IMG/VR virus record: IMGVR_UViG_3300012347_000452
Coordinates: 1 to 64,000 of that record
From: a virus
Strand: one strand, 5' to 3'
DNA length: 64,000 nucleotides
The notes beneath the pieces are model-generated. The model made no database searches. It was not told the DNA's origin and worked only from the letters and a program-made list of their open reading frames with translations. Shown here piece after piece: positions 2,948 through 63,439 of the stretch. The position numbers were made by a program, and so were the translations under genes. Position 1 is the first letter of the stretch, and each line of letters starts with the position of its first letter.

Positions 2948-5900
2948 TCAATAGCCCTTGGCCGACCACGAGAAGCTGCCGCTCACTCGCGCGCCAGCCG
3001 CGTCGTAGAGCATCACCTTGAAGCCCGCTGCGTTGGGCACGTCCACGAAATCGTAGAGCGCATAGCGAGCGGTAGAGCCTAGGGCAATCGACAGCTCGAC
3101 CGCCACGATGTCGATGAAGGGCGAACCGAATCGGATCAGGGTGCCCGCACCATCAGGCACACGCACGCCGGAGGCGTTGTTCGGGTTGGCGTTGGTGATC
3201 GTCACGCCGTTGATCACGGCGCTGGTGCCGGTCACTGCATCGGTGGCGCCTGCGACGGCCATGCCAGCCTCGTTGCGCACCTTGGCGTCGAGCTTCACGT
3301 TCAGCTTGGTGAGACGGTACAGGGACAGGTTGTCGCCCGAGACCGTGAAGCGGACCTTGACGAACTGGAAGTTGTTGACGAACACCGACGAGATGCCGTT
3401 GTAGTCGGTCCAGGCGTCGCCTGCGTTCAGCTTGACGCTGATGTTGATCGTCACGGTGGGCGAGCCCGCCACGACGTTGCCGGTCGGTGTGACCGTGATC
3501 TTGGTGCCGCCGATCGGCGTGCCGTAGTCGATGACCTCTTCATAGAAGCCGGGGCTGTTGGCGGGCTGGATGAAGACGGGGTAGCCGGCTGCGATCTGGG
3601 CGGCCGGAGTCGTCCACGAGCGGCTCGTGAAGTGCTGCTCGAAGGTCTCCGTGGTGTTGACCGGCAGGATGTAGCTGCCGTCGGTGTCGAGCACCATGTT
3701 GGACTTGGTGCCGGCGAACGTCAGGTCGTTGTTGGCCTTGAGCGAGTAGTCGGGCGGCTGGCTGACGCTGGTCGTCACCTCGCCAGGTGTGCCCACGTTG
3801 CCCGCGCTGTCGATACCGGCCACCCAGTAGGTGTAGGTGCCCGCCACGGTCTCGAAGACGGTGGTGAACCCACCGGCTTTCTGGCCGATCGACGTGGCGG
3901 TGGCCCAGGTGGCACCTCGACGCAGCTCGTTGGAGACCACGGGCAGCGTGCCGGTGGGCTGAGTCCAGTAGAGCAGCACGTTGTTGTCCACGACCTGCTG
4001 AGTGATGTTGGGCTTGGACGGTGCGGAGATGTTGAGTGCGGCCGAACCGGCTGCGCCGACATTGCCGTTCACGTCGATGGCAGCCACCCACCACGTCCGC
4101 GAGCCGAGCCACTGGGCCTTGGTCGAGATGGTGGTGCCCTTGACGCGCCCCAGCACCGTGCCGGCTGCCCAGGAGCTGCCGTAGCGGATTTCGTATTCAT
4201 CGATCGGGAGCGTTGCGGCAGGGTCCGTCCAGGTGAGCTTGAACTCATCGAGCACGAAGGTGCCGCTCACGGTCGGCGCCACTGGCGCGGTGATCGACAC
4301 CAGCGTGGAGCCGGCCGTGCCCACGTTGCCGTTCACGTCTCGTGCGGCGATCCAGTAGGTCCGGTTGCCCAGCCACTCCACTGGTGCGCGGTAGGTGGTG
4401 GACAGCGTGGTGGCGACCACAGTGCCGGCAGCGAAGGAAGCGCCGTGACGAATCTCGTATTCTTTGATCGGCAGCGTGGAGCTCGGGGCGGTCCAGGTGA
4501 GTTCGGCCTTGGCCACAACCACAGTTGAGGAGACGCTCGGGGCGCCAGGTGCGCTCACGTTGACCGCAACCGACGCGGAGGCGCCGAACTGCTTGTTGGT
4601 ATCGACTGCCGTCACCCACAGCGTGCGCGAGCCCAGCCAGGTGAGTGGCAGCGTGATCGTGGTGGTGTTGACCTTGCCGATGATCTCGCCCGTCGCCCAG
4701 TCGGCGCCAAAGCGGATGTCGTAGTAGGAGATGTCGAGCGAGCCGTTGATGGCCGACTGCCAGCTCAGAGTGGTGCTCGCCTGCGCGATCGAGGCGCTCA
4801 GGCTGGTCGGGGCGCTGTAAGCGGTGTAGGTGACGACACGCGAGCCGGAGGTGCCGTAGTTGCCTGCACTGTCGATCGCCGCGACATGGAAAGTCTTGCT
4901 GGAGGTCCAGTTGACCGGAATCGAGTAGAGACGATCGGAGGTGGTGCCCACGACCGTGCCGGTGGCCCAGGTCGCGCCCTCGCGAACCTCGTACAGACGG
5001 ATCGGGAGTGAACCCAGTGCCGGTGCCGCCCAGGTCAGGATCGCGTTGCCGTCCTTGAACTGGTGCGCCACGCTCACCGCGCCGGGGCCGCTGATGCCGT
5101 TCACATAGGTGCCGATGGCGCCCACGTTGCCGTTCACGTCGGTGGCCCGAACGGTGAAGGTGGCTGACGTGGACCATGTCACGCCCAGCGTCAGGGTGGT
5201 CGTGTAGGCCTTGCCCACCAGAATGCCGGTCTCCCAGGTGGCGCCCCGGCGAATCTCGTAGAAGTCCACCGGCAGCGTCTGCGCGGCATCGGACCACGAG
5301 ATCGTGGCCTGGTCCTGGTCGTAGGTGGCGGTGAAGCCGCTCGGTGCGATCGGCGCCACGACGGTGATCGCGTGCGAGCCTGCGGTGCCGACGTTGCCGT
5401 TCAAATCGATGGCGGCCACCCAGAAGGTGCGCGAACCGAGCCAGTTGATCGGGATGGTGAGCTGGTTGCCGCTGATGGAGCCGATCTCGACGCCGTTGGC
5501 GAAGGTCGAGCCGTAGCGCACCTCGTAGGAGGCGATCGGCAGGGTGCTCGACGGGGTGGACCAGTCGAACGTGAAGGTCGTGCCCTTCTTTGCGCTCGTC
5601 ACCACGGTGGCGGCAGGAAGGTTGAACACGGCACTCACCGATGTGGGTGTGCCGACGCTGCCCGCTGTATCGACGGCCGCGACCCAGATCAGTTGGGTTG
5701 CAGTCCATGCAACGGGCGTCTTGTAGGACAGGTCGGTCGTGGTGCCGACAGTGACGGCGCCCGCCCAGGTCGAACCCCGCTTGATGATGTAGCCGCCCAC
5801 GGGGAGCGAGCCTGCGGCAGCCGCCGTCCAGGTGAGGACGATGTCGGCGCGCGAGTAGGAGTAAGTGGGCGTGACGGCCCCAGGGGGTGCGATCGTGGCT

Positions 5901-20844: not shown

Positions 20845-21041
20845 TCAGTCACCTCTTCGGGGTTTTCTTCAGGGTCTTGCTCGGCAGCTTCGGGCTCGAT
20901 GGTCTCGGTGACGAAGATGGCGCGCACGTATTCGGCTTGGATGTCGCTGACTTCGTCCACCGACACGCCGTTGTCGAAGTGAACGTCGCCCAGCAGACCC
21001 GTGAAGGTCTCGAAGCCGAGTTGGATGATGCGAATTTTCAT
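20841..21041 (-). CDS. Small paralog of the 20413-20844 N-terminal domain
   Basis: MKIRIIQLGFETFTGLLGDVHFDNGVS vs MKLRLTQAGFENYTGQMGVVMFENGLS. Confidence 0.65.
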   Translation of the reverse strand: MKIRIIQLGFETFTGLLGDVHFDNGVSVDEVSDIQAEYVRAIFVTETIEPEAAEQDPEENPEEVTE

Positions 21042-21050
21042 GGGAGCTCC

Positions 21051-21085
21051 AAAAAGAAAAGGGCGAGCCTTTTGAGCTCGCCCTT
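21051..21085 (-). terminator. Intrinsic terminator after the major capsid gene
   Basis: AAGGGCGAGC/GCTCGCCCTT stem plus T-tract. Confidence 0.8.
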
Positions 21086-21121
21086 GATTCTACGTCAGTT
21101 GTGACTGACTCGCAACATCGA

Positions 21122-22033
21122 TTAGATGTTGGTGACGCCCTTCAGACGACCGATGGAGCGGGTGCTCTTCAGTGCCAGGCCGGTGTACCACTTCAGACGG
21201 ATGCGGGTGGCATCTTTGTTCTGAACGGTGCCGATGTTCTCGACCACGATACCGGCGTTGTCACCGCCGTACAGGCCGTGCAAGCCGTCCAACTCGTTCA
21301 GGCGCAAGGCGTAAACGGAGGCGGTGGCAGGAGCGCTGCCTTGGGCTTCGGCGCCGGACAGGAACTCGTTCATGATGACCGGAATGCCGTTGTGAGTCAG
21401 CATGGGGCGGCCAAAGTTTTCGAGCTGCTGCATCACGGCGTCGGTGCCGTAAGTGGCGCGCAACAGGGCGCGGAAGGCGCGGATGGTGCCGCGACGCATC
21501 ACGATCACGTCAGGACCGTTGGGCACGCTGTCAACCAGCTCGTCCAACATGGTCAGGGTGAGCGCGTTGCCGTTGGCGCCGGCAGTCACGGTCTGAGTGC
21601 CACCAGCGGCGGCAGCCATCACGGCCAGACCATCGAACTGCTTGGCGTTGGCGCCAGAGTCACCGGTGGCCAGAGTCTGGTGGAAAGCGCGGGACACAGC
21701 CTTGGCCTTCTTCGCGATCTGGATCGCCATCTGGTCGTTGGTGTTGTTCATGGTGGATTGCAGGAACTTGTCCACGTCCACGTCGCCAGCCAAGATGCGC
21801 AGTTTGGCAACCACTTCGGTGAACGTAGCGGCGCTTTCGTTCACTGCATCGTTGGGGTCGAGCCAGTCGGCGCTGCCCAGGGTGTTTTCACGGTTGTAGA
21901 CGTAAGCCTTACCGTTCACTTGCGTGAAGGGCAGGATTGCCATCATGTCATCGCGTTCGATGATTTGGTCGATGACGCCAGCGATGAGCTGGTTGTTCGT
22001 CAGTTTCTCAGCTTCTGCGCGCAGGAGAGCCAT
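21122..22033 (-). CDS. Major capsid protein (HK97 fold, SSU5-like)
   Basis: 303 aa after the scaffold gene; ILPF..YVYNRE, GDVDVDKF, FDGL, LDELVD, RLKWYTGLAL..RLKGV. Confidence 0.9.
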   Translation of the reverse strand: MALLRAEAEKLTNNQLIAGVIDQIIERDDMMAILPFTQVNGKAYVYNRENTLGSADWLDPNDAVNESAATFTEVVAKLRILAGDVDVDKFLQSTMNNTNDQMAIQIAKKAKAVSRAFHQTLATGDSGANAKQFDGLAVMAAAAGGTQTVTAGANGNALTLTMLDELVDSVPNGPDVIVMRRGTIRAFRALLRATYGTDAVMQQLENFGRPMLTHNGIPVIMNEFLSGAEAQGSAPATASVYALRLNELDGLHGLYGGDNAGIVVENIGTVQNKDATRIRLKWYTGLALKSTRSIGRLKGVTNI

Positions 22034-23113: not shown

Positions 23114-24742
23114 TTATTCCCCCTTCGAGGAGCCAACGGCCCCTTGATTCGATTCGGGCTTGCCGGGTGCCTTCTTCACGCCGGCCGCAGGCTTGTTAGG
23201 GTCTGCGGTCAGCGTGGCAGGATCGACCGGCCAGTCCTTGAGCTCCTTCTCCATCTTGGCGCGCAGCGCTTGGGCCAGTTGGGGAAAGAGTTTGTCCAGC
23301 ACCGACTTCATCTGCTCTTGGCGAACCGCGTCCGGAGCGCTGATCAGCATGAGTCGTGCGGCGATGTCGAACTCGTCGTAGAGGCCGCGTGTGTCGAAGT
23401 CGTCCGGATAGGAGACGAGCTCCTGATCGTTCGAGACTTCTTCACCGCTCCACTTGGCGACGATTGCAACGATCTTGTTCTCGATCACTTCCAGGCTGTC
23501 TGCCTTGGCTGCCAACAGAGCATTCACTCGCTCGAAGTCATAGGCCTTGGCCACACCGCTGGAGTTGTCGATACCGACCGCGTTGTCCTGTTTGGTCCGT
23601 TCACCGGCGAGACCCACAGTGTGGTAAATCTCGTTGATGATCTTGTTGATGACCGCCAGGATCATCTGCGCCTGCTTGGGGTCAGGCGACAGATAGAACG
23701 GCGCAGTGCTCGACTCGCCGTCGTAGAGGAAGATGCGCTTGGTGCCCATCTCCGTCATCTTGGTGTAGTTGTCCTCACCGGGCAGGATGTTCTGCGCCGG
23801 CATGGCCAACTGAGAGAAGGTCTGGTCCTGGATGATGGCGTCCAGGTTGGAGAGGTAGTTCGCGACCGCACGGTCCAGGTAGGCGATCTCATCGATCAGG
23901 GCCTGGGCGCAGTACTCCTCGTCCGAGATGATGTTGTCGGCCAGCACCACGGGCACGATGCCCAGGTCATGCTGGCCCGAGTCCACGAGCTTGACCACTT
24001 TGCGGCGGCCCTCCTTGAACTCCTGGTAGAGCTTCCAGTCGTTCTTGGTCCACAGGCGGAAGCGCTCGACCTCTTCGCCCGAGGAATTCATCGGGTCGGT
24101 GGCGTCGCGCACGCACTCCTGGATCAGCACCCATTCCAGGGCACCGTTCTCGTCGAAGGCGTAGTCGAGCAACTGCTCCGGGCCCACGGTGTAGGCGTAG
24201 GTGCGCACACCCGAGTTCTTCTCTTCGGCCTTGGAGACCACCGGCGCGGCGGTCGTGCCGTTCGTGGTGTCGATCACGATGCCGATGCGCCCGTAGATCG
24301 AGGTCTTCTTGGAAATCTGGCGCGAGAGCTCCTTGATGCTCAGGCCGTTGCGGGTGGCCTTCTTCCAGAAGCGCTTGACCGATTCGGGGGCGTCATCGTC
24401 GTTGCGCTGGATGTTCTGCTTGAAGAGGTACTTGTTCAGGAGGTCCACCACCTCGCGGGAGTGGTTGAACCGGTAGGCGCGAACCAGGCGGTCGGCGAAC
24501 TCGGTGTCGCCCTCTTTCATGTAGCGGAAGATGTTCTCTTTGAACCACTCGCGGCCGCCCTCGTAGGTGTCCTCGAGGAAGGCCCAGTGATCGACGTTCT
24601 CGACGTACTCGGGGTGGCGGCGCTCGATCAGGGCTCGCAGCTTCTTCTGTTCGTCGGTGACGGGCGCGACCGATCCACCCGCCAGTTTGGAGTTGGGGTC
24701 GATGGCGAAACTCTCGCCTGGCTTGAGTGTTGGATTCGGCAT
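23114..24742 (-). CDS. Portal protein
   Basis: 542 aa after terminase; HPEY..W..TYEGG, SGVAKAYDF, YPDDFD. Confidence 0.88.
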   Translation of the reverse strand: MPNPTLKPGESFAIDPNSKLAGGSVAPVTDEQKKLRALIERRHPEYVENVDHWAFLEDTYEGGREWFKENIFRYMKEGDTEFADRLVRAYRFNHSREVVDLLNKYLFKQNIQRNDDDAPESVKRFWKKATRNGLSIKELSRQISKKTSIYGRIGIVIDTTNGTTAAPVVSKAEEKNSGVRTYAYTVGPEQLLDYAFDENGALEWVLIQECVRDATDPMNSSGEEVERFRLWTKNDWKLYQEFKEGRRKVVKLVDSGQHDLGIVPVVLADNIISDEEYCAQALIDEIAYLDRAVANYLSNLDAIIQDQTFSQLAMPAQNILPGEDNYTKMTEMGTKRIFLYDGESSTAPFYLSPDPKQAQMILAVINKIINEIYHTVGLAGERTKQDNAVGIDNSSGVAKAYDFERVNALLAAKADSLEVIENKIVAIVAKWSGEEVSNDQELVSYPDDFDTRGLYDEFDIAARLMLISAPDAVRQEQMKSVLDKLFPQLAQALRAKMEKELKDWPVDPATLTADPNKPAAGVKKAPGKPESNQGAVGSSKGE

Positions 24743-24783
24743 GATGTTCCTATCTTATACGTCAGTTGTGACTTAGTCAATCC

Positions 24784-26028
24784 TTAGATTGACAAGCCTC
24801 CGATTTCCACTTTGCGCACTGGGAATTCCAGCTCGATGCAGTAGCCGCCGGCGTCGGCCGAGTGCTCGGTGCCGCCCGACTTGTCCACCTCGCGGGTGCC
24901 CTTCTTGTAGATGGTCTGCTCCAGGGCGCTGATGAAGTGCTTGCAGCGGGGGTTGATCTTCAGGCGCACGTTTCCGTTGGCGTCCTTCAGCATCCGGTTC
25001 ACCGCGTTCACCCGGTCGGCCACCATCGGGTGCTTCTTGCGGTACTTGATCCGCTTGAAGCCCTTCTCGCGCAGGATGTCCATGTCGGTCTCGCCTCGGG
25101 CGTGCTGACGCTGGCCGCCGGCGGGGTCCGGGTACATGACGATCTGGCTCTGGTGACGCCAGAAGCGCTTCTCCAGCTCCTCGCACACCTCTTCGGTGTT
25201 GGAGCCGAACAGCACCACCTCGTCCACGGCCCAGAGCTCGCCATTCAACTGAGGCTGGTAGATCACCGTGGACATCGGGTCGATGTTGAAGTCCATGCCG
25301 ACCCAGATCGGCAGCTTCGGGTTGAACTCTACCGGCTGAATGTGGACGGCGCGGTCGAACGGGTAGTAGACCCGGCCCGACATGGTCTCGAAGCTCGCCT
25401 CGAACTCCTGGCGAAACGACTTCTCGTCCATGTCCTTCTTGGCCGCCTCGATCTCCGAGATCGGGATGAAGGGGCTGGTGATGGTCGGGAACTGCCAGCT
25501 CATCCACTCGTTGAGCCCTTGAAGCACCGGGTCTTGGCCCTTCTTGTACAGCTCGTAGAGGTAGTTGTAGGCCTTGGGGGTGCCGATGAAGATGGCGTGG
25601 CCACCGGTGTCGGCGAGCGTCGGGCGCAGCACCAGCGTCCAGACCTCTTCGGCCATGTCCTGGAACTCGTCGAGCACGAGGAAGTGGATACCGACGCCTC
25701 GCAGCGAGTCGGGCTTGTCAGCGCCCTTCAGCTCGATGCGGGTGCCGTTGATGAGCGTGACAGTGAGGCTGGTCTCGTTGATCTTGCGAATCCACTTGCG
25801 GGGAATCGCATCCATCAAGTCGACCCACATGATCTGCTTGGCCATCTTGTAGGTCGGGGCCACGTACCAGATTTTCTGCTTCTTCTTCTGGGCCTTCTTG
25901 ATGATGAGGACTCGGGATAGCGCGGTCTTGCCCCAACGTCGGCCGGCCACGACCACCCGATACCGGCTCTGCGACCGATACACCTCCATCTGCTTGGTGT
26001 GAAGGGACAGGTTTGCCTTGGCCGCCAT
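24784..26028 (-). CDS. terL: Terminase large subunit
   Basis: AGRRWGKT Walker A, YVAPTYKMAK, LVLDEF, IGTPK, FRQEFEASF, GMDFN nuclease. Confidence 0.95.
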   Translation of the reverse strand: MAAKANLSLHTKQMEVYRSQSRYRVVVAGRRWGKTALSRVLIIKKAQKKKQKIWYVAPTYKMAKQIMWVDLMDAIPRKWIRKINETSLTVTLINGTRIELKGADKPDSLRGVGIHFLVLDEFQDMAEEVWTLVLRPTLADTGGHAIFIGTPKAYNYLYELYKKGQDPVLQGLNEWMSWQFPTITSPFIPISEIEAAKKDMDEKSFRQEFEASFETMSGRVYYPFDRAVHIQPVEFNPKLPIWVGMDFNIDPMSTVIYQPQLNGELWAVDEVVLFGSNTEEVCEELEKRFWRHQSQIVMYPDPAGGQRQHARGETDMDILREKGFKRIKYRKKHPMVADRVNAVNRMLKDANGNVRLKINPRCKHFISALEQTIYKKGTREVDKSGGTEHSADAGGYCIELEFPVRKVEIGGLSI

Positions 26029-34617: not shown

Positions 34618-34931
34618 ACACCTCGGCACACAAGCCGGAGCTCTGGCAGTTCCGATGGTTGAACCCAAGCGGGGAACCCCAACCCGCCTCGGTACTGGAG
34701 TGGAAGATCGTCGAACCGCTCTGGAACCAAACGGTCGAGCAAAAGTGCGCGGAGCTTCTCGCCTTCCGGTACAAGAACAAGCCGATGTACGAGGTCAGGG
34801 GGCTCTACGCCCATTCGCCATTCGCGAACAGCGAACAGACCGTCGTCATCGACCGAGCCTGCTTCGAGCGGGGCTGTCCCTGCCATGACGTTGGCGACAA
34901 AGACGCCGTCATCGTTCGGAGCGTCCCATGA
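34614..34931 (+). CDS. Hypothetical protein
   Basis: ATGA overlaps on both sides. Confidence 0.6.
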   Translation: MNTSAHKPELWQFRWLNPSGEPQPASVLEWKIVEPLWNQTVEQKCAELLAFRYKNKPMYEVRGLYAHSPFANSEQTVVIDRACFERGCPCHDVGDKDAVIVRSVP

Positions 34932-35113
34932 CCGACCAACCGATCCTGGGCTACGACAAAGCGGGCCAACCCATCTACGAGACCAAGCGGGGCTTCATCT
35001 ACACGGCCGCGTGCATCCTGTGCTCTGAGTGCAAGACCGTGATCCGGGGAATGGGCGGCCCGAAGCACGGAAGCACCTGCGTGCCCTGCCACGACGCGAG
35101 GAAGCACTCATGA
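34928..35113 (+). CDS. Small Zn-finger protein
   Basis: CSEC..CVPC; ATGA overlaps. Confidence 0.6.
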   Translation: MTDQPILGYDKAGQPIYETKRGFIYTAACILCSECKTVIRGMGGPKHGSTCVPCHDARKHS

Positions 35114-35496
35114 GAGTTCTGGTGTGTGGTGGACGCGACTTCACCGACTCGGCTTTCGTGGACTGGGTGCTCGACACACTTCACAAGCGAAAGCCCATCA
35201 CGATCGTCATCCACGGGTGTGCACAGGGCGCTGACACGCTCGGGGAGAAATGGGCCGCCAGGCAGGACGGTGTCACCTCTTACGGGGTGCCTGCGGACTG
35301 GAAGAAGCATGGTCAACGTGCGGGGTTTGTGCGCAATCGACTCATGCTCGAACATGGCAAGCCAGAACTGATCGTTGCGTTCGAGGGAGGTGCCGGCACA
35401 CGGGACATGACGACTGCGGCGACAGCCGCCGGAGTCAAAGTCCTGTTCGCCGAGAAGCTCCGCTCTCACTTCGACGCAAGGCCGCCGTGGGAGTGA
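35110..35496 (+). CDS. SLOG family protein (DUF2493/YspA-like)
   Basis: MRVLVCGGRDF, IHGCAQGAD, PADWKKHG..RNRLM, AFEGGAGT. Confidence 0.88.
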   Translation: MRVLVCGGRDFTDSAFVDWVLDTLHKRKPITIVIHGCAQGADTLGEKWAARQDGVTSYGVPADWKKHGQRAGFVRNRLMLEHGKPELIVAFEGGAGTRDMTTAATAAGVKVLFAEKLRSHFDARPPWE

Positions 35497-35794
35497 TGTT
35501 CACCTATAAGGATAGAGGTATCGGGTATCGGGAAATGGGGGCCGGGGTGTGGGGTCTGGAGCCGATGTATAAGGATTGGTCCCTGGGGTCTGGGGCCTGT
35601 GTAAGGATCGGTCTGGGGAGGTGGAAGACGAGGAAGGGGTCGCTCACGCACCGATAGCTTTTTTCTAAGACTATCGGTTTCTCATAGGTTTTTACAATGT
35701 ATGCGCGATGACCATCACACCGAAAACACCTACCACAAAAAGACACCAATTGAAAGCATTATCTGACATAATTTTCACCTCTTTTTTGACAACC

Positions 35795-35818
35795 GACTGA
35801 CACTGTAAGGTGTCAGTC
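35795..35818. terminator. Inverted repeat at the transcription convergence point (probable terminator)
   Basis: GACTGACAC-tgtaag-GTGTCAGTC, 13 nt from the stop of the minus-strand gene. Confidence 0.55.
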
Positions 35819-35831
35819 AGTCACTCATGAA

Positions 35832-36512
35832 TTACTTATAAAAAGCAATAATTGCTTCAGCTTTGTCGTTTTGCTTGAATGATATCGCATCATTCTTTTT
35901 AGCTTTAATGACATTACAAATGTCTAAAAACCTAAGCATTTGACGCGATGACGACAATTGAGTCGTCGCGGTGTTTTCACTGACATTCAAGAGTGCTCGA
36001 ACATTCTGAACCTGTTCAGTCTCAGAGTAAACGACCGTTTTTGTAAGTGACATCAGACCTGACTTATTTGTCAGTGTTTCATTCTTTGTAAGATTGAAAA
36101 GAATGCTATTTGTATAAGGGTCTAACTCGCTTTTTTGCTTTGTTGCAAGTGCATAAATGCAATCGCGTATTTTGGTTATCACTTTCAACGCTACATAATT
36201 TTCTGAACCTTTAGTACCTGTTTTTATTGCATTTGCAAGAGTTACAAGCGATTCAGGTGAAGTAAAACCGTTTTTAATAACATGTTCGATTTGCACCGCA
36301 AAACGAGCACTTTTTATCTCATTCAAGTCTGAGATTATCGTTTTGCACTTTGCGTTTTCAGGTTGTGCTTTTCTGAACTCGCATGCATCAATGAATGCTT
36401 GCTGAATTGCTTTGTAGTCAACCGCTTGAACCGCGTCAACCGCTTGCACTACTAGTGGTGTCTTGGTGGTCTTGGTGGTCTTGGTGGTCTTGGTGGTGGT
36501 CTTGGTAGACAT
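35832..36512 (-). CDS. AT-rich protein with TKT-repeat N-terminus and putative C-terminal winged helix; distant paralog of 48295-49134
   Basis: GAGG RBS, 226 aa open frame in AT-rich DNA, motif alignment with the 48 kb ORF. Confidence 0.75.
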   Translation of the reverse strand: MSTKTTTKTTKTTKTTKTPLVVQAVDAVQAVDYKAIQQAFIDACEFRKAQPENAKCKTIISDLNEIKSARFAVQIEHVIKNGFTSPESLVTLANAIKTGTKGSENYVALKVITKIRDCIYALATKQKSELDPYTNSILFNLTKNETLTNKSGLMSLTKTVVYSETEQVQNVRALLNVSENTATTQLSSSRQMLRFLDICNVIKAKKNDAISFKQNDKAEAIIAFYK

Positions 36513-36899
36513 AGAAACCTCATAAGTTGAATTGTGCAAAATCGCACTTTATGCGCACGAAAACCATGCGCATAAAATGAGACTTTAGATTTTTAAAGAA
36601 CTTCAGTGATGCACCGCGATGAGTGCATGAGTCAAATTATACATGCTTTTTTTGTGCAAACGGTGACTTTTTTCACCTTGCACAAAAAAAATGTGAAAAG
36701 ACCTGATTTTCAGCAAATCGATTTAAACGCGTTTTAAGGTGCTTTTTAGCGGTTTTTGTGCGAGTTGATACAGATGCACCAGACACCTCGAAAAAATCGA
36801 TTGTAGAGCGTTCTGGTGGGTTTGAGTACTTTTGTGCAACGACTCAATTTTCACAAAATAGTTGGTACGGTTTTTGAATGCACGCAAAGTGCATTTTGT

Positions 36900-37110
36900 G
36901 ACTGAACAGTATTTTTCCTACTGAACGGTCTGGTTTTCGACTGAACCGACCAGTCGGCAAATAGGCGGTCTGGTTTGCTACTGAACGGTCTGGTTTCTGA
37001 CTGAACTGTTCAGTAGGCGACTGAACGGTCTATTCGGCGACTGCACCGACCAGTAGGCGACCAGGCGGTCGTTCGGCAACTAGGCGGTCGGCAGGCGACC
37101 GAGCGGTCTG
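36900..37110. repeat. Degenerate ~20-bp tandem array (iteron/operator-like), about 10 units
   Basis: CTGAAC at 36902, 36921, 36941, 36981, 37001, 37021; ACTGAACTGTTCAGT palindrome at 37000-37014. Confidence 0.85.
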
Positions 37111-37139
37111 CGCACGACCTGCGCTCGTCCTAACCTGCG

Positions 37140-37400
37140 CGTACTTCGTCCTAGCCGTACCCCTACTTCGACCCAGCCGTACTCCTAAACTCGTCCTTAC
37201 TTCGGTCCACCCGTACTCCGAGGCATCCCTAGGCAAGCCCTTGGATCGTTCCTTGGACGCATCCTTGGATGACGCCCTAGGCAAGCCCTTGGATCGCCTC
37301 TTGGATCGTTCCTAGGCTTCGTGTGCCCCTACGCACACTTCGTTTCGCCCATACATCGCCTAACTTCACCCTACCCGTACTCCGAGGCATTCCTAGGGCG
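37140..37400. repeat. CCWWGG/CCGTACTCC array 1
   Basis: CCWWGG at 37228, 37239, 37251, 37263, 37276, 37287, 37311, 37392. Confidence 0.85.
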
Positions 37401-37412
37401 AGAACGATGCTG

Positions 37413-37437
37413 AAAAACCGAGCTTGGGTGCTCGGTT
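37413..37437 (-). terminator. Cassette terminator 1
   Basis: AACCGAGC-6-GCTCGGTT plus T-tract. Confidence 0.7.
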
Positions 37438-37443
37438 CGGTGC

Positions 37444-37761
37444 TTACATGTCCAAGTCAGTCGCGCTCATGTTGGACATCTCAGCAAGCGCTTCACGGTA
37501 GGAGTCGTGTTTGCTGAATGCGATCAAGTCCCCTACCTTGTCGTCAACCGAGTTGGTGATTCCAATGAACCAGAACTCTGTGTTTCCATTTGTGATCTCA
37601 ACGATCGCGTAGTCGTTTCCATCGTTCGCGGTGAATAGGACTCGAACCTGCTCATCTTGAGTTTTCCAAAAGCTCATTAGCTGTCGAAAGATGGAAAGGT
37701 TGTGACCGTAGGGGTTGGTATGAAATGCGTCGCGAAGGTCGCTGAAAGTTTGGAAGCGCAT
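37444..37761 (-). CDS. Small acidic hypothetical (early cassette A)
   Basis: Own TATAAT promoter and terminator. Confidence 0.7.
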   Translation of the reverse strand: MRFQTFSDLRDAFHTNPYGHNLSIFRQLMSFWKTQDEQVRVLFTANDGNDYAIVEITNGNTEFWFIGITNSVDDKVGDLIAFSKHDSYREALAEMSNMSATDLDM

Positions 37762-37780
37762 AGGAGCTTTCGGTGAAGTA

Positions 37781-37807
37781 CTACAAAATCGTAGAACCTT
37801 GATTATA
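37781..37807 (-). promoter_or_regulatory. -10 TATAAT plus GATTTT-loop leader hairpin (cassette A)
   Basis: TATAAT at 37802-37807; CTAC-GATTTT-GTAG. Confidence 0.7.
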
Positions 37808-37860
37808 ACTTCACCGATGTTGAAAAATGTAGGGTGAATTCAAACGCCCGAACGTCCAAC

Positions 37861-37933
37861 GCCTACCGTGGCCTAGGAATGCCTAGGCCGAGATTCCTAG
37901 GCCGGTGTCCTTGGCCTGGTTCCTAGGCCGAGG
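37861..37933. repeat. CCWWGG array 2
   Basis: CCWWGG at 37872, 37882, 37896, 37909, 37922. Confidence 0.85.
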
Positions 37934-37943
37934 TTTGTAGTTT

Positions 37944-37968
37944 GAAAACCGAGCATGGACGCTCGGTT
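37944..37968 (-). terminator. Cassette terminator 2
   Basis: AACCGAGC-6-GCTCGGTT. Confidence 0.7.
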
Positions 37969-37978
37969 CTCGGACCGC

Positions 37979-38266
37979 TTATTCTGATCGGACCGCGACG
38001 TTCAGCATCGCTTCAAGTCCGACCTCGTCGAACTTCTTCAACCAGGACGAATACGCTCTGGTAGCAGGACCGTTCATCTCGTTCGGACGCTCACCGCTGA
38101 TCTTTGATCGGACGCTAGAGAGCATCACACCGAGCGGTTTACTCGGACGCTTGTCACAATCGCGTTGGTAAGTAAATCGGACGAACGGTTCATATTTGCA
38201 AACCGCGCTAGGGTTTTCACTTTGACCAACAGCGATGATGGTGATCGGAGATTCTTTCTTGCTCAT
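37979..38266 (-). CDS. Hypothetical (early cassette B)
   Basis: ATGA-coupled to the upstream ORF; terminator follows. Confidence 0.65.
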   Translation of the reverse strand: MSKKESPITIIAVGQSENPSAVCKYEPFVRFTYQRDCDKRPSKPLGVMLSSVRSKISGERPNEMNGPATRAYSSWLKKFDEVGLEAMLNVAVRSE

Positions 38267-38472
38267 GCTGCGCTTTCAGGACGTGTCATGGTGAAGCTCT
38301 GACCAACGAGGTCGTAGGGCAAATCTTCACACTCGTCACACAGGTCGGACGCGACATAAGGTAAGACGGACGCTGGTAGCAACGACTCGAAGGTCGGACC
38401 ACCATCTTGCGTGAACACGCAGGCGAAGGTGTCGAAGTGAGAATCGTAGGACTTGATGAGAATATTTAGCAT
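38263..38472 (-). CDS. Small acidic hypothetical (early cassette B)
   Basis: Directly downstream of the promoter-hairpin. Confidence 0.6.
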   Translation of the reverse strand: MLNILIKSYDSHFDTFACVFTQDGGPTFESLLPASVLPYVASDLCDECEDLPYDLVGQSFTMTRPESAA

Positions 38473-38490
38473 CGGACGCTTTCAAAGAAT

Positions 38491-38519
38491 CACTGCAAAA
38501 TCACAGTGAACCGATTATA
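38491..38519 (-). promoter_or_regulatory. -10 TATAAT plus GATTTT-loop leader hairpin (cassette B)
   Basis: TATAAT at 38514-38519; CACTGT-GATTTT-GCAGTG. Confidence 0.7.
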
Positions 38520-38569
38520 ACATCGCGTTATGTGGAAAATAACGGACATTTTCAACCGCCCTATCACCG

Positions 38570-38735
38570 ACCCTAGGCTTTCCCCTTGGATTTCTCCTTG
38601 GACTACGCCTAGGCATCCCTTGGACCGTTCCTAGGCTCGTTCCTAGACTCATGCCTGCTTCTCCGTGGCCGTACTCCTAGGCCCATCCCTGCTTCTTCCT
38701 ACCCGTACTCCTAGGCTTCTCCGTGGCCGTACCCG
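38570..38735. repeat. CCWWGG/CCGTACTCC array 3
   Basis: CCWWGG at 38572, 38584, 38596, 38608, 38618, 38630, 38676, 38710. Confidence 0.85.
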
Positions 38736-38742
38736 AACATGA

Positions 38743-38765
38743 GAAAACCGAGCCTAAACTCGGTT
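38743..38765 (-). terminator. Cassette terminator 3
   Basis: AACCGAG-6-CTCGGTT. Confidence 0.65.
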
Positions 38766-38777
38766 CATTGGAAGCGA

Positions 38778-39008
38778 TTAGGCTTCTGCGTAATCTTCTT
38801 CGGACGCATTGAGCGCCCACAGAGCAGCGTCAAGCCCTGGTTTCGCATACCGAACGAGTCCAACCTGGCCCTCAAACGCGACCAGGTATTTCCAACCTCC
38901 GTCGTTCAGAGGAACCGCACACAGGGTCTCTCCCGTGTTGAGGTCCACAGTTGTGCCCATCTGAGCTTGCGTGAGTTGGGCGGGAGTGAGGGCGATGATT
39001 TTGTTCAT
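38778..39008 (-). CDS. Hypothetical (early cassette C)
   Basis: AGGA RBS; terminator follows. Confidence 0.65.
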   Translation of the reverse strand: MNKIIALTPAQLTQAQMGTTVDLNTGETLCAVPLNDGGWKYLVAFEGQVGLVRYAKPGLDAALWALNASEEDYAEA

Positions 39009-39028
39009 GGATGTTTCCTGGTGATTTG

Positions 39029-39265
39029 TTAGGCGTTCAAGGTGGGCACGTACATGTCACTCACGGTGATTCCCCATGAGACGAAGTGACCGTGACAGAG
39101 GACTTGCTCCAACCAATTGATTGCCTCCTCATCTGTGAAAAGATGGAAGACGTTGAAGATGCGCTCGGGCGCTTCCGCTTTTACCGCGTAGGGTAGTGAC
39201 TCATGGAACATGGACTTGAGAACATTGCGGGCTTTGTCCGCATCGCAGGTGGAAGAGAAGGACAT
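39029..39265 (-). CDS. Hypothetical (early cassette C)
   Basis: AAGGAG RBS, start at MSFSS. Confidence 0.65.
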   Translation of the reverse strand: MSFSSTCDADKARNVLKSMFHESLPYAVKAEAPERIFNVFHLFTDEEAINWLEQVLCHGHFVSWGITVSDMYVPTLNA

Positions 39266-39291
39266 GGTGGTCTCCTTATATAAGAAGGGTG

Positions 39292-39320
39292 CAGTGCAAA
39301 ATCGCACTGACTCAAATATA
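39292..39320 (-). promoter_or_regulatory. -10 TATATT plus GATTTT-loop leader hairpin (cassette C)
   Basis: CAGTGC-GATTTT-GCACTG, same spacing as cassettes A and B. Confidence 0.65.
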
Positions 39321-39339
39321 ACCAATGAACTCAGGACAA

Positions 39340-39875
39340 ACTTATAGGAACGAGGGAACCTTATAGGGAATCTTATAGGGGGAAGGACGACGCTCTCCTA
39401 GGCATCCCACGGACGAATCCATGCTTTTCCCCTAGGGAGATACTTTCCTAGGCCGGTGCCTTGGAACGAGCCTAGGGAATGACGCCTAGGGATGCCGAGG
39501 ACGACGTGCCCACACTTCTTCCTACCCGTACTCCAAATCAGGCCATACAGGCGTCGCCCCGTACTCCGAGGCTCGTTCTCCCTAGGGAAGAAGCAGGATG
39601 GCTCGGGCGGCGAGATTTTTTCCTGTAAGGTTTTGGGAAAGTGAGGATGAAATGATGAGGGGAATACTTCGCCCACACATTGGTTCCACATTGGTTCCAC
39701 ATTGACCCTTTCTCCGTAGCCTGACTCTCTTCCCTACTCCTCTCATCCATAGGCTTCTCCCTAGGCTCATCCTTCTCCGTATGGTTGTTCGTCTCCGTGG
39801 CCTGGTCCTTCTTGTTCGTGTTGGTGACGTTGATCTTCCTATTCGTCGTTACTGTCCTCTTCCCGTACTCCGTGA
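39340..39875. repeat. CCWWGG/CCGTACTCC/CTTATAGG array 4 (non-coding)
   Basis: CCWWGG at 39397, 39431, 39447, 39459, 39471, 39485, 39581, 39760; 12-bp tandem CACATTGGTTCC near 39676-39705. Confidence 0.8.
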
Positions 39876-40313
39876 TCTTGGTTGGGATTGTTCGGGCTTT
39901 TTCTCTCCGACGTATATCTGTATGTAGTAGGAGTAGAGACTCCTATTGTTCTTTGTTCGGGGAATCGTTCGGGCTTTCTTCTCTCAGGCTGTTGTCGGGG
40001 TCGAGCTCTTTAAACGCGATTTGAGCGCTTTCCGGTCGTTGGTGGTGTCAGCGGTCATCTTGAGTGTCTGGCACGCTTCTATGGTCGTTCTGATGCGCTG
40101 GCCAAGGTTCTTTTTCGGTGGTTGGTTCTGAGGTTGCTTATAGGTAGGGAACCTTATAGATAGGCTATTCTTTGGTTAGTAGTCGGGACTTAGTGCCTTC
40201 CTGTTAGCGTTAGCGGAAAAGTCCTTTAAAATCAACAACTTACGTTCCTAGGCCTGAACCTTATAGGGAAAAGCCTCTGCAATGAGAGGCTTTCAAGGGT
40301 TTTGGCCTGATTC

Positions 40314-40769
40314 TTATACTTTGGCCTGAGCCATTTTGAGCATCATCGTGGCCGTGTCGATCACGGCACTGACGGCCTTTTCAGCTTTGTCTGCCTGTTG
40401 CTGCGCCAAGAGAGAATAGGCGCCCTCGAGTGCCTTATCGTGAACCCGCTGGATGGTGACGAGTTCGGCGATCGCCATGCCGGTGACTGCCTCGATGTTG
40501 TTCTTTCCGAAGATGCGGGCCAGGGCATCGACGCTCTCCTCGTTATGACTCTCCCAGGGGTCAGCCGAGCAATTGATCTCCTTCAGTTGCGCCTCCGAGA
40601 ACAGACTGCCTACCGCGCAGTTGTTGCCTGACTTGTACTGATAGGCGCAATCGAGCTTGTCGCCCTTGTTGACGTTCGGTCCGATCTTGCCCTGCTTGGC
40701 CTGGTCGATGATGTGTTGGAGCGATTCGATCTTGGATCGGCATGAGACTCCATTGATGATGTGTGGCAT
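40314..40769 (-). CDS. Hypothetical phage protein
   Basis: AAGGAG RBS; CAY..NCAVGSL..QRVHD motif. Confidence 0.75.
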   Translation of the reverse strand: MPHIINGVSCRSKIESLQHIIDQAKQGKIGPNVNKGDKLDCAYQYKSGNNCAVGSLFSEAQLKEINCSADPWESHNEESVDALARIFGKNNIEAVTGMAIAELVTIQRVHDKALEGAYSLLAQQQADKAEKAVSAVIDTATMMLKMAQAKV

Positions 40770-55616: not shown

Positions 55617-55759
55617 GTGATGCCTTTCAACTTCTTGTCTTTCTCGGCCAGCTCCTTCATGTGCTGGTCGAGGCCTTTCCAGTCTTTCGTGGTCCACAGG
55701 TGGTGAGCCTGTGACCCAGGCATCAGGTAGATGCCCTTGTAGAGAACCGCGCCTCTCAC
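55613..55759 (-). CDS. Small hypothetical
   Basis: GTGA overlap; YKGIYLMPGSQAH. Confidence 0.5.
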   Translation of the reverse strand: MRGAVLYKGIYLMPGSQAHHLWTTKDWKGLDQHMKELAEKDKKLKGIT

Positions 55760-56319
55760 AGCGCGACCACCGTTCCTGCGCCGGTCTTGACCTTCTTGGC
55801 GGGCTTCTCGGCCTTCGCCGGTGCGGCTTTGTCTTTGGGCCAACCGAGCGTGGCCAGGTCGGCGACGAGGTTCGCAATCGAAGGCAGGTAGATCGACTTC
55901 TCCTGCTGCTTGGGCAGGTACTGCTCGAACTCGGGCAGACGCTCCAATGCGACCTTCAAGGTTGAGCAAGGCTCGATGGCACCACGCAGCTTGGCGCGAG
56001 CCGATTCCAGACGTGCTTCCTGCTCTTTGTGGAGCTGGGTGAGCTCGTCCACCTTTGTCTGCACTTCCTCGGTGGGTGTGTAGGAGCAGCCGCGAGGCTC
56101 GTAGACTCGAATCGAGCCGAACTGGCTGCGCCACCAACTGCTCGTCTCCAGGCAGTGACAGAGCGCCTTGTCACGGGCGATGGCTTGCACTTTCGCCGGC
56201 AGTTGCGCGATGGAATCGTCGTGAATCAGGGCGCGGACCTGCTCCTGATAGTCGATCTTGGGGATGTCTTGAACGACGGCCAAGACGAAAGCGTCCTTGT
56301 CGGATTTGGTGAGTCTCAT
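55756..56319 (-). CDS. Nmad5-like (nucleotide modification associated domain 5) protein
   Basis: MRLTK..FV..V..DIP, TLKVALERLPEFEQYLP. Confidence 0.7.
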   Translation of the reverse strand: MRLTKSDKDAFVLAVVQDIPKIDYQEQVRALIHDDSIAQLPAKVQAIARDKALCHCLETSSWWRSQFGSIRVYEPRGCSYTPTEEVQTKVDELTQLHKEQEARLESARAKLRGAIEPCSTLKVALERLPEFEQYLPKQQEKSIYLPSIANLVADLATLGWPKDKAAPAKAEKPAKKVKTGAGTVVAL

Positions 56320-60217: not shown

Positions 60218-60400
60218 TCAGAAGAACAGCCCCAAGATCGAGCCCAGAGGCGCCACGATGACACCCAGGACGCGCAGGATCAGAGCGCCCGTGATGTGGT
60301 CGAAGCTCATGCCGTACAGGACGACGATGTTCATGACCCAGCCGACGATGGCCAGAACCCAGGCGATGATCATGGCGGACAAGATGGTGAGGTTCATCAT
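60218..60400 (-). CDS. Small membrane protein
   Basis: GWVMNI..LRVLGVIVAPLGSILG. Confidence 0.7.
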   Translation of the reverse strand: MMNLTILSAMIIAWVLAIVGWVMNIVVLYGMSFDHITGALILRVLGVIVAPLGSILGLFF

Positions 60401-61230
60401 GCCGCTTCTCCAAACGAGGCTTCGACCAGCTTGCGGTTCTGCATCCAGCCCCGGAAGTTGCCCGACCACAAATCTGCCTCCGCCATCGGGGTTGCTTGAT
60501 GCTCAATCGGTGATGCGTGGAGGGGCACACCCCCGACCAGTCGCTCGTACAGCGCAACGTCCTTTTCGATGCTCGGTGTCTGACCGTCATGTGTGAGATA
60601 GGACACGCGAGCGCACCGGGCAGCAGAGACCTTCAGGAGCAGGTCCATGTTGTCGAAGTGCTCGGCAAGTTCGGCGCGCGTCACGTAGGGCAGATGCCAC
60701 TGACCTTCCATGAGCGTGATCGGACGCGACTCGGCGAAGGCGTGCTTCATCACCAGCGCCAGCGCGTGAATCTCGGGCTGGGCGTCAGGGTGAGCGCGGA
60801 GCTCGAAGAAGTTGTCCCACTCGGTGGCGGTGACGATGACGTGCATGTACTGATAGGGCTCGAGGATGCGGTTGGCCACCTGCTTGTGCAAGCCGATGTC
60901 AGCCATCACCTGGGCGACAGCCGCAGCGTCACGGGCCGCTTGCACCCACAGTTGCTTTGCGCCCTCACGAGCCAGCGGCCGAAGCTCTTCGTTCGCCTGC
61001 ATCCCTGCCTGGTTCTGACCCCAGTGGATCGGCATGGCGGGGTCGTTGCGGACCTGCTCGATCATCTTGGCCACCGGAATGGCGCGCGACGAGCTGGCGT
61101 TGCGGCTGAACACCCGATGCGTCATGAACTCGGCATGGATGAAGCGGGGATAGCAAAGCTGAAGGGTGGTCAGCCGCACCCCGTGATCGGCGATCGAGTC
61201 TTCGATCACCTTGGCGGTGATGGTGGTCAT
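60397..61230 (-). CDS. thyX: FAD-dependent thymidylate synthase
   Basis: EFMTHRVFSRNASSSRAIP, NFFELRAHPDAQPEI, SAARCARVSY, HASPIEH. Confidence 0.88.
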   Translation of the reverse strand: MTTITAKVIEDSIADHGVRLTTLQLCYPRFIHAEFMTHRVFSRNASSSRAIPVAKMIEQVRNDPAMPIHWGQNQAGMQANEELRPLAREGAKQLWVQAARDAAAVAQVMADIGLHKQVANRILEPYQYMHVIVTATEWDNFFELRAHPDAQPEIHALALVMKHAFAESRPITLMEGQWHLPYVTRAELAEHFDNMDLLLKVSAARCARVSYLTHDGQTPSIEKDVALYERLVGGVPLHASPIEHQATPMAEADLWSGNFRGWMQNRKLVEASFGEAA

Positions 61231-61360
61231 TTTTTGTCCGTCTTTCGTTTGATGAAGTGATAGAGCTGGTGGACCTTCCAGCCCACCCATGCTCCGACGA
61301 GGATTGCGAGGCCCAGGGCGACGATCACGTCACCCCGACCGGCGAAGATGCCGACTGCGT

Positions 61361-63122: not shown

Positions 63123-63198
<76 letters not shown>

Positions 63199-63288
63199 CC
63201 ATCAACTCTGCCCTCTGGTGGGTCCAGCACTTGTTCAGCCTTCAGAGGGCAGACACTTGGCCATTCCTCTTTGAGAGGACAGAGTTGA

Positions 63289-63363
63289 TGGTTCCAGAGG
63301 GAGGTTTTGAACCTCCGACCTACCGCTTATCAAGCGGGCGCTCTACCCCTGAGCTACTCTGGA
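63289..63363 (-). tRNA. tRNA-Ile(GAT)
   Basis: TCCAGAG/CTCTGGA acceptor, loop TTGATAA, GTTCAA, encoded CCA. Confidence 0.85.
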
Positions 63364-63364
63364 C

Positions 63365-63439
63365 TGGTTGCGGGGACAGGACTCGAACCTGCGACCTCCG
63401 GATTATGAGTCCGGCGCTCTACCACTGAGCTACCCCGCG
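63365..63439 (-). tRNA. tRNA-Met(CAT), initiator-like acceptor stem
   Basis: CGCGGGG/CCCCGCA with C1:A72 mismatch, loop CTCATAA, encoded CCA. Confidence 0.9.

Follow-up and report, generated by a model that had tools for sequence, protein, structure and literature searches.

A minus-strand cassette in a siphophage genome

We analysed a window of 64,000 nucleotides, which corresponds to positions 1 to 64,000 of the IMG/VR virus record IMGVR_UViG_3300012347_000452. Between 35633 and 36915 this window holds a single minus-strand cassette made up of an upstream region, a gene that we call X, an ORF for a 25-aa peptide and two hairpins, and throughout this zone GG occurs only as GGT and CC only as ACC. 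The features of the zone and its surroundings are given below.

35503..35613, minus strand: repeat array outside the zone, with three 9-mers of the (C)CTTATAC/CCTTACA type, spaced by about 32 bp, in DNA rich in G runs
35623..35643, minus strand: conserved box, GCGACCCCTTCCTCGT.. on the minus strand, from an alignment of 19 related loci; it includes the GGA at 35632
35633..36915, unstranded: zone without GGA, GGC, TCC or GCC, with GG/CC only as GGT/ACC, from counts and shuffles
35650..35678, minus strand: hairpin with the conserved 9-mer AGTCTTAGA (35664-35672) at the outer zone edge, a possible cassette terminator
35692..35769, minus strand: ORF for a 25-aa hydrophobic peptide, single-pass membrane-like, with its own AGAGGT ribosome site
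35792..35821, minus strand: inverted repeat with 12-bp arms, terminator-like, directly after gene X
35832..36512, minus strand: gene X, 226 aa, supported by a structure model and homologues
36456..36506, minus strand: tandem repeat of 9 bp (TGGTGGTCT) that codes for the (T)KTT repeats in the X tail, source of about 11 GGT runs
36513..36915, minus strand: non-coding region upstream of X, with a perfect -10 hexamer (36636-36641), leader hairpins and TTGTGCAA halves
36895..37110, unstranded: about seven 20-bp iterons (ACTGAACGGTCTGG-type) that close the zone on its inner side; GGC/GCC returns here
37397..37846, minus strand: second cassette (ORF 37444-37761), no GGC/GCC for 449 bp, GGA/TCC present
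37927..38318, minus strand: third cassette (ORFs 37979-38266 and the start of 38263-38472), no GGC/GCC for 391 bp
39341..40267, plus strand: five CTTATAGG copies, in the opposite orientation to the copy at 35503

The first excluded word on the outer side, the GGA at 35632, lies inside the conserved box, and the box therefore marks a sharp boundary. The 9-mer AGTCTTAGA is unique in the genome and is also found at the zone edge in the phages nickie, RHEph10, V1VFA-S and B1VFA, while hydrophobic ORFs of 21-32 aa come after gene X in many relatives. The region upstream of X is a putative promoter region. It contains four TTGTGCAA palindrome halves (at 36532, 36652, 36678 and 36832), and a consensus scan gave no full sigma-70 match. 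Copies of CTTATAGG, six in number against 0.16 expected, bracket an atypical module at 35.5-40.3 kb that may be a terminal-repeat unit. An Rfam search of 34800-40500 gave no credible RNA family.

Judged by its genes, the phage is an SSU5/nickie/RHEph10-like siphophage. The genome of 107,050 bp (60% GC) encodes a J-like tail fibre, a tape measure, a portal and a terminase, together with a Pol III alpha fused to a UDG-like domain, DnaB, primase, RecA, ligase, ribonucleotide reductase, CobS/CobT-like proteins and an integrase. The portals and polymerases of Salmonella phage SSU5, Pseudomonas phage nickie and the Rhizobium phages RHEph10, V1VFA-S and B1VFA share 42-56% identity with their counterparts in this phage. 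End repeats are absent from the phage's 107,050-bp metagenome contig. The sequence occurs in metagenomes from freshwater, wastewater and crustaceans.

The product of gene X is predicted to be a winged-helix DNA-binding protein. In the structure model (AF2, pLDDT 86) a disordered Lys/Thr-rich tail (residues 1-30) is followed by a helical domain (33-124) and a C-terminal winged helix (about 125-226), the model having both the helix-turn-helix and the beta-hairpin wing of this fold. The winged helix superposes on MarR/ArsR/PadR-type domains with a VIA Z of 8-9 and an rmsd of about 2 Å over 73-81 residues, but X matches no Pfam family; many wHTH regulators match residues 116-226 at VIA Z 8.9-7.3. 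The globular domain of histone H1 (H1x) is also among the matches (Z 7.4), which span an rmsd of about 2-3.6 Å, and X shares with linker histone H1 a Lys-rich disordered tail. Structure comparison gave no clear match for the N-terminal helical domain, a Foldseek search against the PDB gave no significant match, and blastn and tblastn searches of the zone or X against a phage collection returned nothing useful. X falls into PHROG 4202/9272, families of unknown function. Its homologues number 23, and several lie on contigs about 95-110 kb long.

Absence of GGA, GGC, TCC and GCC from the zone

A direct count of 35633-36915 found no GGA, GGC, TCC or GCC. A preliminary description of this DNA had stated that between 35635 and 36915 every CC run is preceded by A and every GG run is followed by T, in about 50 runs. 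This rule is exact: it holds for 26/26 CC runs and for 27/27 GG runs (three of which are GGG(G)T), 53 runs altogether. The same description had reported none of the four words between the GGA at 35632 and the TCC at 36916, which agrees with the count, and the resulting gap of 1284 bp compares with a second-longest gap of 84 bp within the window and 89 bp across the 107,050-bp genome. About 11 of the GG runs derive from the single 9-bp tandem repeat in the X tail, so that the number of independent runs is about 42.

The GG/CC-restricted zone is confirmed as real and far beyond chance. In 5000 dinucleotide-preserving shuffles the expected number of excluded words was 31.3 ± 3.5, with a minimum of 19, and zero was never reached; in 5000 permutations of synonymous codons that kept the protein and its own codon usage, the mean was 11 and the minimum 3. 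Neither set reproduced the absence, in line with the earlier statement that codon bias and low GC do not explain the rule. Written with the phage-wide codon usage, gene X would carry 43 excluded words. The rule had also been said to span both the gene and non-coding DNA, and the 403-bp non-coding part upstream of X does contain no excluded word, together with 14 GGT/ACC. In the zone as a whole GGT/ACC is enriched (53 observed against 19-30 expected), other trinucleotides are near expectation and only two trinucleotide pairs are missing. The zone is the sole low-GC part of the genome (39% against 60%), with observed-to-expected ratios of 0.93 for TC/GA and 0.86 for CT/AG. The palindromes CGCG, TGCA and TCGA occur at expected levels, as do most 4-bp palindromes. 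Other intergenic regions of the same genome do not obey the GGT-only rule.

A number of simple causes were rejected. Chance and low GC are ruled out by the shuffles and codon bias by the codon-preserving permutations, whereas a constraint at the protein level is ruled out because non-coding DNA follows the rule too, and an RNA-level motif because the rule is strand-symmetric. Avoidance of G-quadruplexes or Chi sites was rejected as well, since neither matches a dinucleotide rule.

Two longer words had also been described as absent. GATC is indeed missing from 35606 to 37244, but with no more than about 2.6 sites expected there its absence is statistically weak. GCAG/CTGC is missing from 35414 to 37041, where 9.2 are expected, which is of moderate significance.

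The preliminary description had proposed strong selection against a very short motif for recognition or modification, with GG[A/C] named in its suggested test. The first part of this proposal stands, as selection on double-stranded DNA against a very short word is well supported by the strand symmetry, the coverage of coding and non-coding DNA, the codon controls and the conservation of the rule in relatives whose protein is 35-50% identical. The motif needs revision, and the avoided word is better described as the GG/CC step with a tolerated context that is specific to the clade than as GG[A/C].

Conservation of the ban and its place on the phage DNA

We compared 57 related loci with the zone locus. 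In most of these, the longest stretch free of GGA, GGC, TCC and GCC (0.8-1.6 kb) sits over the X homologue; loci with zones of 0.8-1.6 kb are L001, L002, L005, L010, L017, L026, L029, L030, L032, L048 and L052. An unbiased scan of all trinucleotide pairs in related loci singled out words that contain GG/CC and no others. GG inside the zones of relatives is nearly always GGT, and in some clades only CGGT (CGGT/ACCG) is found. Among the cultured phages, GG and CC are altogether absent from 1137 bp in nickie, 1279 bp in V1VFA-S and 851 bp in B1VFA, and RHEph10 has 973 bp with one CC. The zones of nickie and V1VFA-S have a GC content of 46-49%, the zones of nickie and the Rhizobium phages together spanning 46-51%, and in the zones of nickie, RHEph10 and V1VFA-S the dinucleotides GC and CG are raised 1.4-2.0-fold in compensation, the nickie zone being rich in GCGC. 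On comparison of these sequences, the GGT-only rule of the window is a special case of a wider GG/CC ban conserved across the relatives of the phage. The ban is held in phages of three proteobacterial classes, the Alpha-, Beta- and Gammaproteobacteria (Rhizobium, Burkholderiales and Pseudomonas), and a copy of X on a Paraburkholderia genome contig comes with a zone that is free of GGC over 1011 bp and follows the CGGT-only rule. No zone is present in SSU5 or in Stenotrophomonas phage BUCTxx99, which have the core genes in common with this phage.

This ban has a cost in protein. X of the window has 4 Gly (all GGT), 4 Pro and no Trp. In the cultured relatives, because their zones are without GG/CC, the X homologues contain no Gly, Pro or Trp, save for one Gly in RHEph10. 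The Rhizobium phages also have X paralogues 1-2 kb outside the zone, and these are normal in Gly, Pro and Trp and in GG content, so that the constraint goes with location rather than with membership of the protein family.

The outer edge of the zone is sharp and conserved. In nearly all relatives it carries an element that consists of AAGTCYTAG, about 22 nt, ..CCTTCCTC.. and then two or more TCCTTATAC (CCTTATAC) repeats. In the window this element (the AAGTCTTAGA box) is found on the minus strand at 35503-35672, on the side opposite the iterons, and the sequence turns ordinary immediately beyond the box. On the inner side the ban decays stepwise. Next to the zone come the 20-bp iterons (36895-37110) and then more repeat arrays, which reach to 37400, after which 37397-37846 and 37927-38318 are without GGC/GCC but with GGA/TCC; no GGC/GCC gap elsewhere in the genome exceeds 214 bp. 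GGC/GCC is abundant in the repeat spacers that separate the cassettes. In the compared loci, secondary GGC/GCC-free zones are found on the inner side only, with the exception of L007, which was set apart and whose main zone is located elsewhere relative to X. The repeat-rich non-coding region that adjoins the cassette is, by its position and make-up, a candidate T5-type 'injection stop' feature.

Published terminal repeats of the relatives suggest where this edge lies on packaged DNA. B1VFA has fixed ends and a direct terminal repeat of 3605 bp, and V1VFA-S has a terminal repeat of about 3939 bp, the lengths being given without coordinates (PMC12509600). Nican01, a Nickievirus, is classed as 'DTR (long)' (PMC11256456); its record begins at the terminase gene, and the supplements of that paper are without its terminus coordinates. 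We aligned V1VFA-S and B1VFA base by base and sought a 3939-bp interval that matches a 3605-bp interval. Within 3 bp there is a single placement, which starts at 20985-21156 and ends at 24923-25094 of V1VFA-S, while a tolerance widened to +/-20 bp admits another placement inside the tail genes, one of the two lengths having been read from coverage. The zone of V1VFA-S occupies 23661-24940, and the mapped repeat end falls at the conserved box just past it, so that the zone would form the outermost 1.3 kb of the terminal repeat. The 334-bp difference between the two repeats is accounted for by a deletion of about 344 bp inside the zone of B1VFA. It is thus probable, from the repeat lengths published for these relatives, that the zone lies at the outer end of a long terminal repeat, at the tip of the packaged DNA. 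Gene X is oriented toward the tip in the window phage and nickie and away from it in the Rhizobium phages.

Readings of the ban and comparison with known systems

A zone of this kind implies that some factor reads double-stranded DNA at a word of two to three letters, and we know of no described enzyme or defence that accounts for a ban on such a word. The closest precedent is the first-step-transfer DNA of phage T5. Its terminal repeat enters first, carries the pre-early genes and closes with a repeat-rich injection-stop region, and only this first-step DNA is open to restriction, CRISPR and Ssp systems (PMC10644984; 10.1101/866236). A site-free first-step DNA has been proposed as self-protection while T5 degrades the host DNA (10.1101/866236). 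It is still an open question by what means T5 keeps its own DNA safe during the A1-dependent destruction of the host's, and A2 is an essential DNA-binding protein of the first-step segment (10.64898/2026.04.02.716235).

The reading that we favour, at a probability of roughly one half, is that the zone is a T5-like first-entering cassette, placed at the tip of the terminal repeat, that escapes a DNA-targeting activity reading GG/CC. The T5 precedent speaks for a leading-end cassette, and so do the rule itself, its uniqueness in the genome and conservation among relatives, the conserved box at the outer edge, the one-sided decay and the long terminal repeats of the relatives. Such a cassette would be self-contained and probably the first to be expressed, with its promoter region, the winged-helix protein X, the membrane peptide and the terminator hairpins. 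At the outer end of the long direct terminal repeat it would form the tip of the packaged DNA and would enter first, and the repeat arrays behind it could halt entry. The tip would have to remain intact and expressible while the DNA-targeting activity is at work, whether this is a phage nuclease turned on host DNA or a host defence. Selection on duplex DNA would have purged GG/CC except for GGT/ACC, so that a factor reading the short word could not act on the cassette, and the GG/CC-rich remainder of the genome would be exposed only later.

The GGC/GCC-rich spacers are not what a simple nuclease model, in which any cut is lethal, would predict. Since the terminal repeat is redundant, we speculate that the leading copy might tolerate being cut in its spacers, with the self-contained, motif-free cassettes still expressed. 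Pfam and PHROG searches found no nuclease or anti-defence family in the cassettes, whose small proteins have no match at all. This lack of a nuclease or A1/A2-like gene in the cassettes, the missing zone in SSU5 and BUCTxx99 and the varying orientation of X were counted against the first-entering reading. A wider version of it is possible, with the balance leaning against: these phages may carry or induce a reader of the GG/CC step (a nuclease, a DNA coat or a modifier, the reader maybe being X) and spare a terminal 'safe zone' by means of a reduced alphabet, graded over cassettes that perhaps enter stepwise.

Several of the same observations could be explained in other ways. The ban tracks transcription units, with cassettes that are free of the words and non-transcribed spacers that are GGC-rich. 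This would also be expected if the phage modified its own DNA at GG/CC (here GGV) in a manner that hinders host RNA polymerase, the first transcription units, which are transcribed off the parental virion DNA, being written without the target word. The tolerated context varies by phage clade as the specificity of an enzyme would, and the genome encodes an Nmad5 domain (55756-56319) and a YspA/SLOG domain (35029-35496), both with links to nucleotide modification. However, a search of the whole 107-kb genome, with positive controls, found neither DpdA/TGT (PF01702) nor QueC (PF06508), no methyltransferase was found among about 60 proteins scanned, and a gene-content comparison revealed no gene exclusive to zone-bearing phages. 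Replication genes full of GG/CC would also need to be read from the parental DNA, and the hard conserved outer boundary would be left unexplained; we regard self-modification as unlikely. X itself could be the reader, as a linker-histone-like coat or silencer on GG/CC-rich host and phage DNA, with its own unit, and in part the neighbouring ones, lacking the binding step so that X is still made. X is the sole gene that always lies within the zone, which runs from the X promoter region to the terminator, and its winged-helix fold, the histone H1 match and the disordered lysine-rich tail would suit such a role. The tolerated context follows the X phylogeny, but this phylogeny is confounded with those of host and phage. 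The fold match is also generic, a winged helix that reads a dinucleotide is without known precedent, and the four upstream TTGTGCAA sites suggest an ordinary operator-binding regulator, all of which makes this proposal improbable.

Ordinary avoidance of host defences in the most critical region, through a CRISPR PAM (type I-F, CC/GG) or depletion of restriction sites, draws support from the fact that a PAM is the one known word of 2-3 bp that is read on duplex DNA on either strand. T5-like phages, moreover, are vulnerable to CRISPR and restriction only through sites in the terminal repeat that enters first (PMC10644984), and in the window GATC and CTGC/GCAG are missing too. Loss of CC/GG whatever the flank, as expected for a type I-F PAM, is seen in nickie, V1VFA-S and B1VFA but not in the window, where 53 GGT/ACC are retained; CC as such is thus not avoided here and a CC PAM does not fit. 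Type I-F systems are not known to be common in Pseudomonas syringae and Rhizobium. As for restriction, its sites are words of 4-8 bp, often palindromic and host-specific, whereas the words here are trinucleotides. Phages of three proteobacterial classes exclude the identical word from their zones, and there is no avoidance of palindromes (CGCG, TGCA and TCGA at expectation here, and GCGC abundant in the nickie zone), which makes ordinary host restriction enzymes unlikely and the host-defence explanation as a whole quite improbable. Finally, the words might have been erased without selection by mutation at this locus, for example through a cytosine deaminase with BCC as its target, and the AT-richness of the zone would agree with this. 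The products expected from deamination are not enriched and the X protein is conserved with an intact ORF, which disfavours a mutational origin. The zones of nickie and the Rhizobium phages stay at 46-51% GC with GC/CG raised, and the boundaries coincide with conserved functional boxes. We consider such an origin extremely improbable.

A complete ban on a word of two to three letters is a very strong footprint of selection, and it extends across three bacterial classes at the price of glycine, proline and tryptophan, which a conserved protein has lost or uses in restricted form. In the literature searched we found no description of GG/CC-free zones, nor of the total removal of a dinucleotide step (here in all contexts but one) at a cost in amino acids. 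Identification of the reader could bring to light a new system of DNA cleavage by a nuclease, of modification or of DNA coating, and it could show how the leading DNA is protected in phages whose DNA enters in stages. If a GG/CC reader is indeed at work, it would represent a new principle of self/non-self distinction and a concrete answer to the sparing of the first DNA in T5. The availability of cultured nickie, Nican01, B1VFA, V1VFA-S and RHEph10 makes the question testable now, and the exceptions of the clades (GGT here, CGGT elsewhere, none in nickie) provide a ready specificity series.

Among known systems, the DpdA 7-deazaguanine modification is reported to target GA and GGC. It is similar to the present case in its very short G-containing words, GGC among them, and differs in its enzymes, since neither DpdA/TGT nor QueC is encoded here. 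The avoidance of restriction sites and CRISPR PAMs has in common with the zone a strand-symmetric loss of short words by selection on duplex DNA. Known avoidance, however, is genome-wide, statistical and host-specific, whereas the zone is absolute, confined to about 1.3 kb, concerned with a shorter word and found in phages of three proteobacterial classes.

The first-step DNA of T5 offers the closest comparison. In both cases a large siphophage has long direct terminal repeats (here as judged from relatives), with self-contained genes that are early in T5 and probably so here, a DNA-binding product (predicted for X) and then a repeat-dense non-coding region. The T5 segment, however, is about 10 kb long against a zone of about 1.3 kb, and it lacks a few 6-bp sites, whereas the zone loses a step of 2-3 bp completely, which costs Gly, Pro and Trp. 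The graded relaxation over the following cassettes is another feature unlike T5. Homologues of A1, A2 or dmp were not found in the zone phage, Pfam and PHROG giving no such match for X or for the cassettes beside it; the genome has its two metallophosphatase genes at about 70 kb and 96 kb. With no A1/A2 homologues the zone stands outside the T5 pre-early family, but, by analogy, it may work like the T5 region.

X and its homologues

Inside the zone (window 35633-36915, where GG and CC occur only as GGT and ACC), the gene for the 226-aa winged-helix protein X is accompanied by a second, very short ORF.

35692-35769, minus strand: ORF for a 25-aa hydrophobic peptide, downstream of X

In many relatives X is likewise followed by a similar single-pass peptide of 21-32 aa, and the 25-aa peptide could have a role at the membrane in DNA entry, or in exclusion.

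The X homologue of Rhizobium phage RHEph10 (JX483881) is a minus-strand ORF (99195-99809) with one Gly and no Pro or Trp; gp148 (99105-99785), annotated on the plus strand, is probably assigned to the wrong strand. Paralogues of X with normal Gly, Pro, Trp and GG content, which probably share one terminal repeat with the zone, lie 1-2 kb away from it in RHEph10 (96170-97060) and in Rhizobium phage V1VFA-S (21680-22603). A Paraburkholderia MAG contig (L112, 449,862 bp) carries an X homologue with a 1011-bp zone free of GGC and GCC (3749-4760), in which GG is found mainly as CGGT. This homologue within a large bacterial contig is probably part of a prophage, either integrated or co-binned, and is a hint that the hosts include Burkholderiales. 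The full zone is absent from a further relative, Stenotrophomonas phage BUCTxx99 (OR529408), whose longest GG/CC-free stretch (135 bp, 24284-24419) could be what is left of a zone, or a zone in minimal form; the phage's sole copy of AGTCTTAGA, at 25403, lies about 1 kb from this stretch.

Other genes of the phage

Genome 76131-79625 (L058:13131-16625, on the phage's own genome): DNA polymerase III alpha subunit
Window 35029-35496: YspA/SLOG protein, immediately adjoining the zone
Window 55756-56319: Nmad5 domain protein
Window 60397-61290: ThyX-like protein
Window 63123-63439: phage genes for three tRNAs, Trp-CCA, Ile-GAT and Met-CAT

The polymerase has a uracil-DNA-glycosylase-superfamily domain at its C-terminus, as in the RHEph10 annotation. 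Nucleotide-modification functions, none tied to the zone in this analysis, are possible for the Nmad5, YspA/SLOG and ThyX-like proteins.

The outer edge and the cassette module

35503-35672, minus strand: conserved non-coding element at the zone's outer edge

In the window and its relatives, this element consists of AAGTCYTAG, about 22 nt, CCTTCCTC and then repeated TCCTTATAC. It is present at the outer edge in the window and in nearly all relatives (loci L001-L057; Pseudomonas phage nickie, 105064; RHEph10, 100034; V1VFA-S, 24929; Rhizobium phage B1VFA, 43246), and is kept among phages whose X proteins share just 35-50% identity. It may represent a terminal-repeat boundary or a packaging signal.

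The module at 35.5-40.3 kb, atypical for the genome and made up of small cassettes with repeat spacers between them, contains the genome's two longest GATC-free stretches (window 35606-37244, 1638 bp; 38243-39832, 1589 bp), the GATC density elsewhere being 6.6 per kb. It is flanked by inverted copies of CTTATAGG, which occurs six times against 0.16 expected, at window 35503 and 39341-40267. The spacing from 35503 to the first CTTATAGG cluster, 3.84 kb, is similar to the 3.6-3.9 kb terminal repeats of the Rhizobium relatives.
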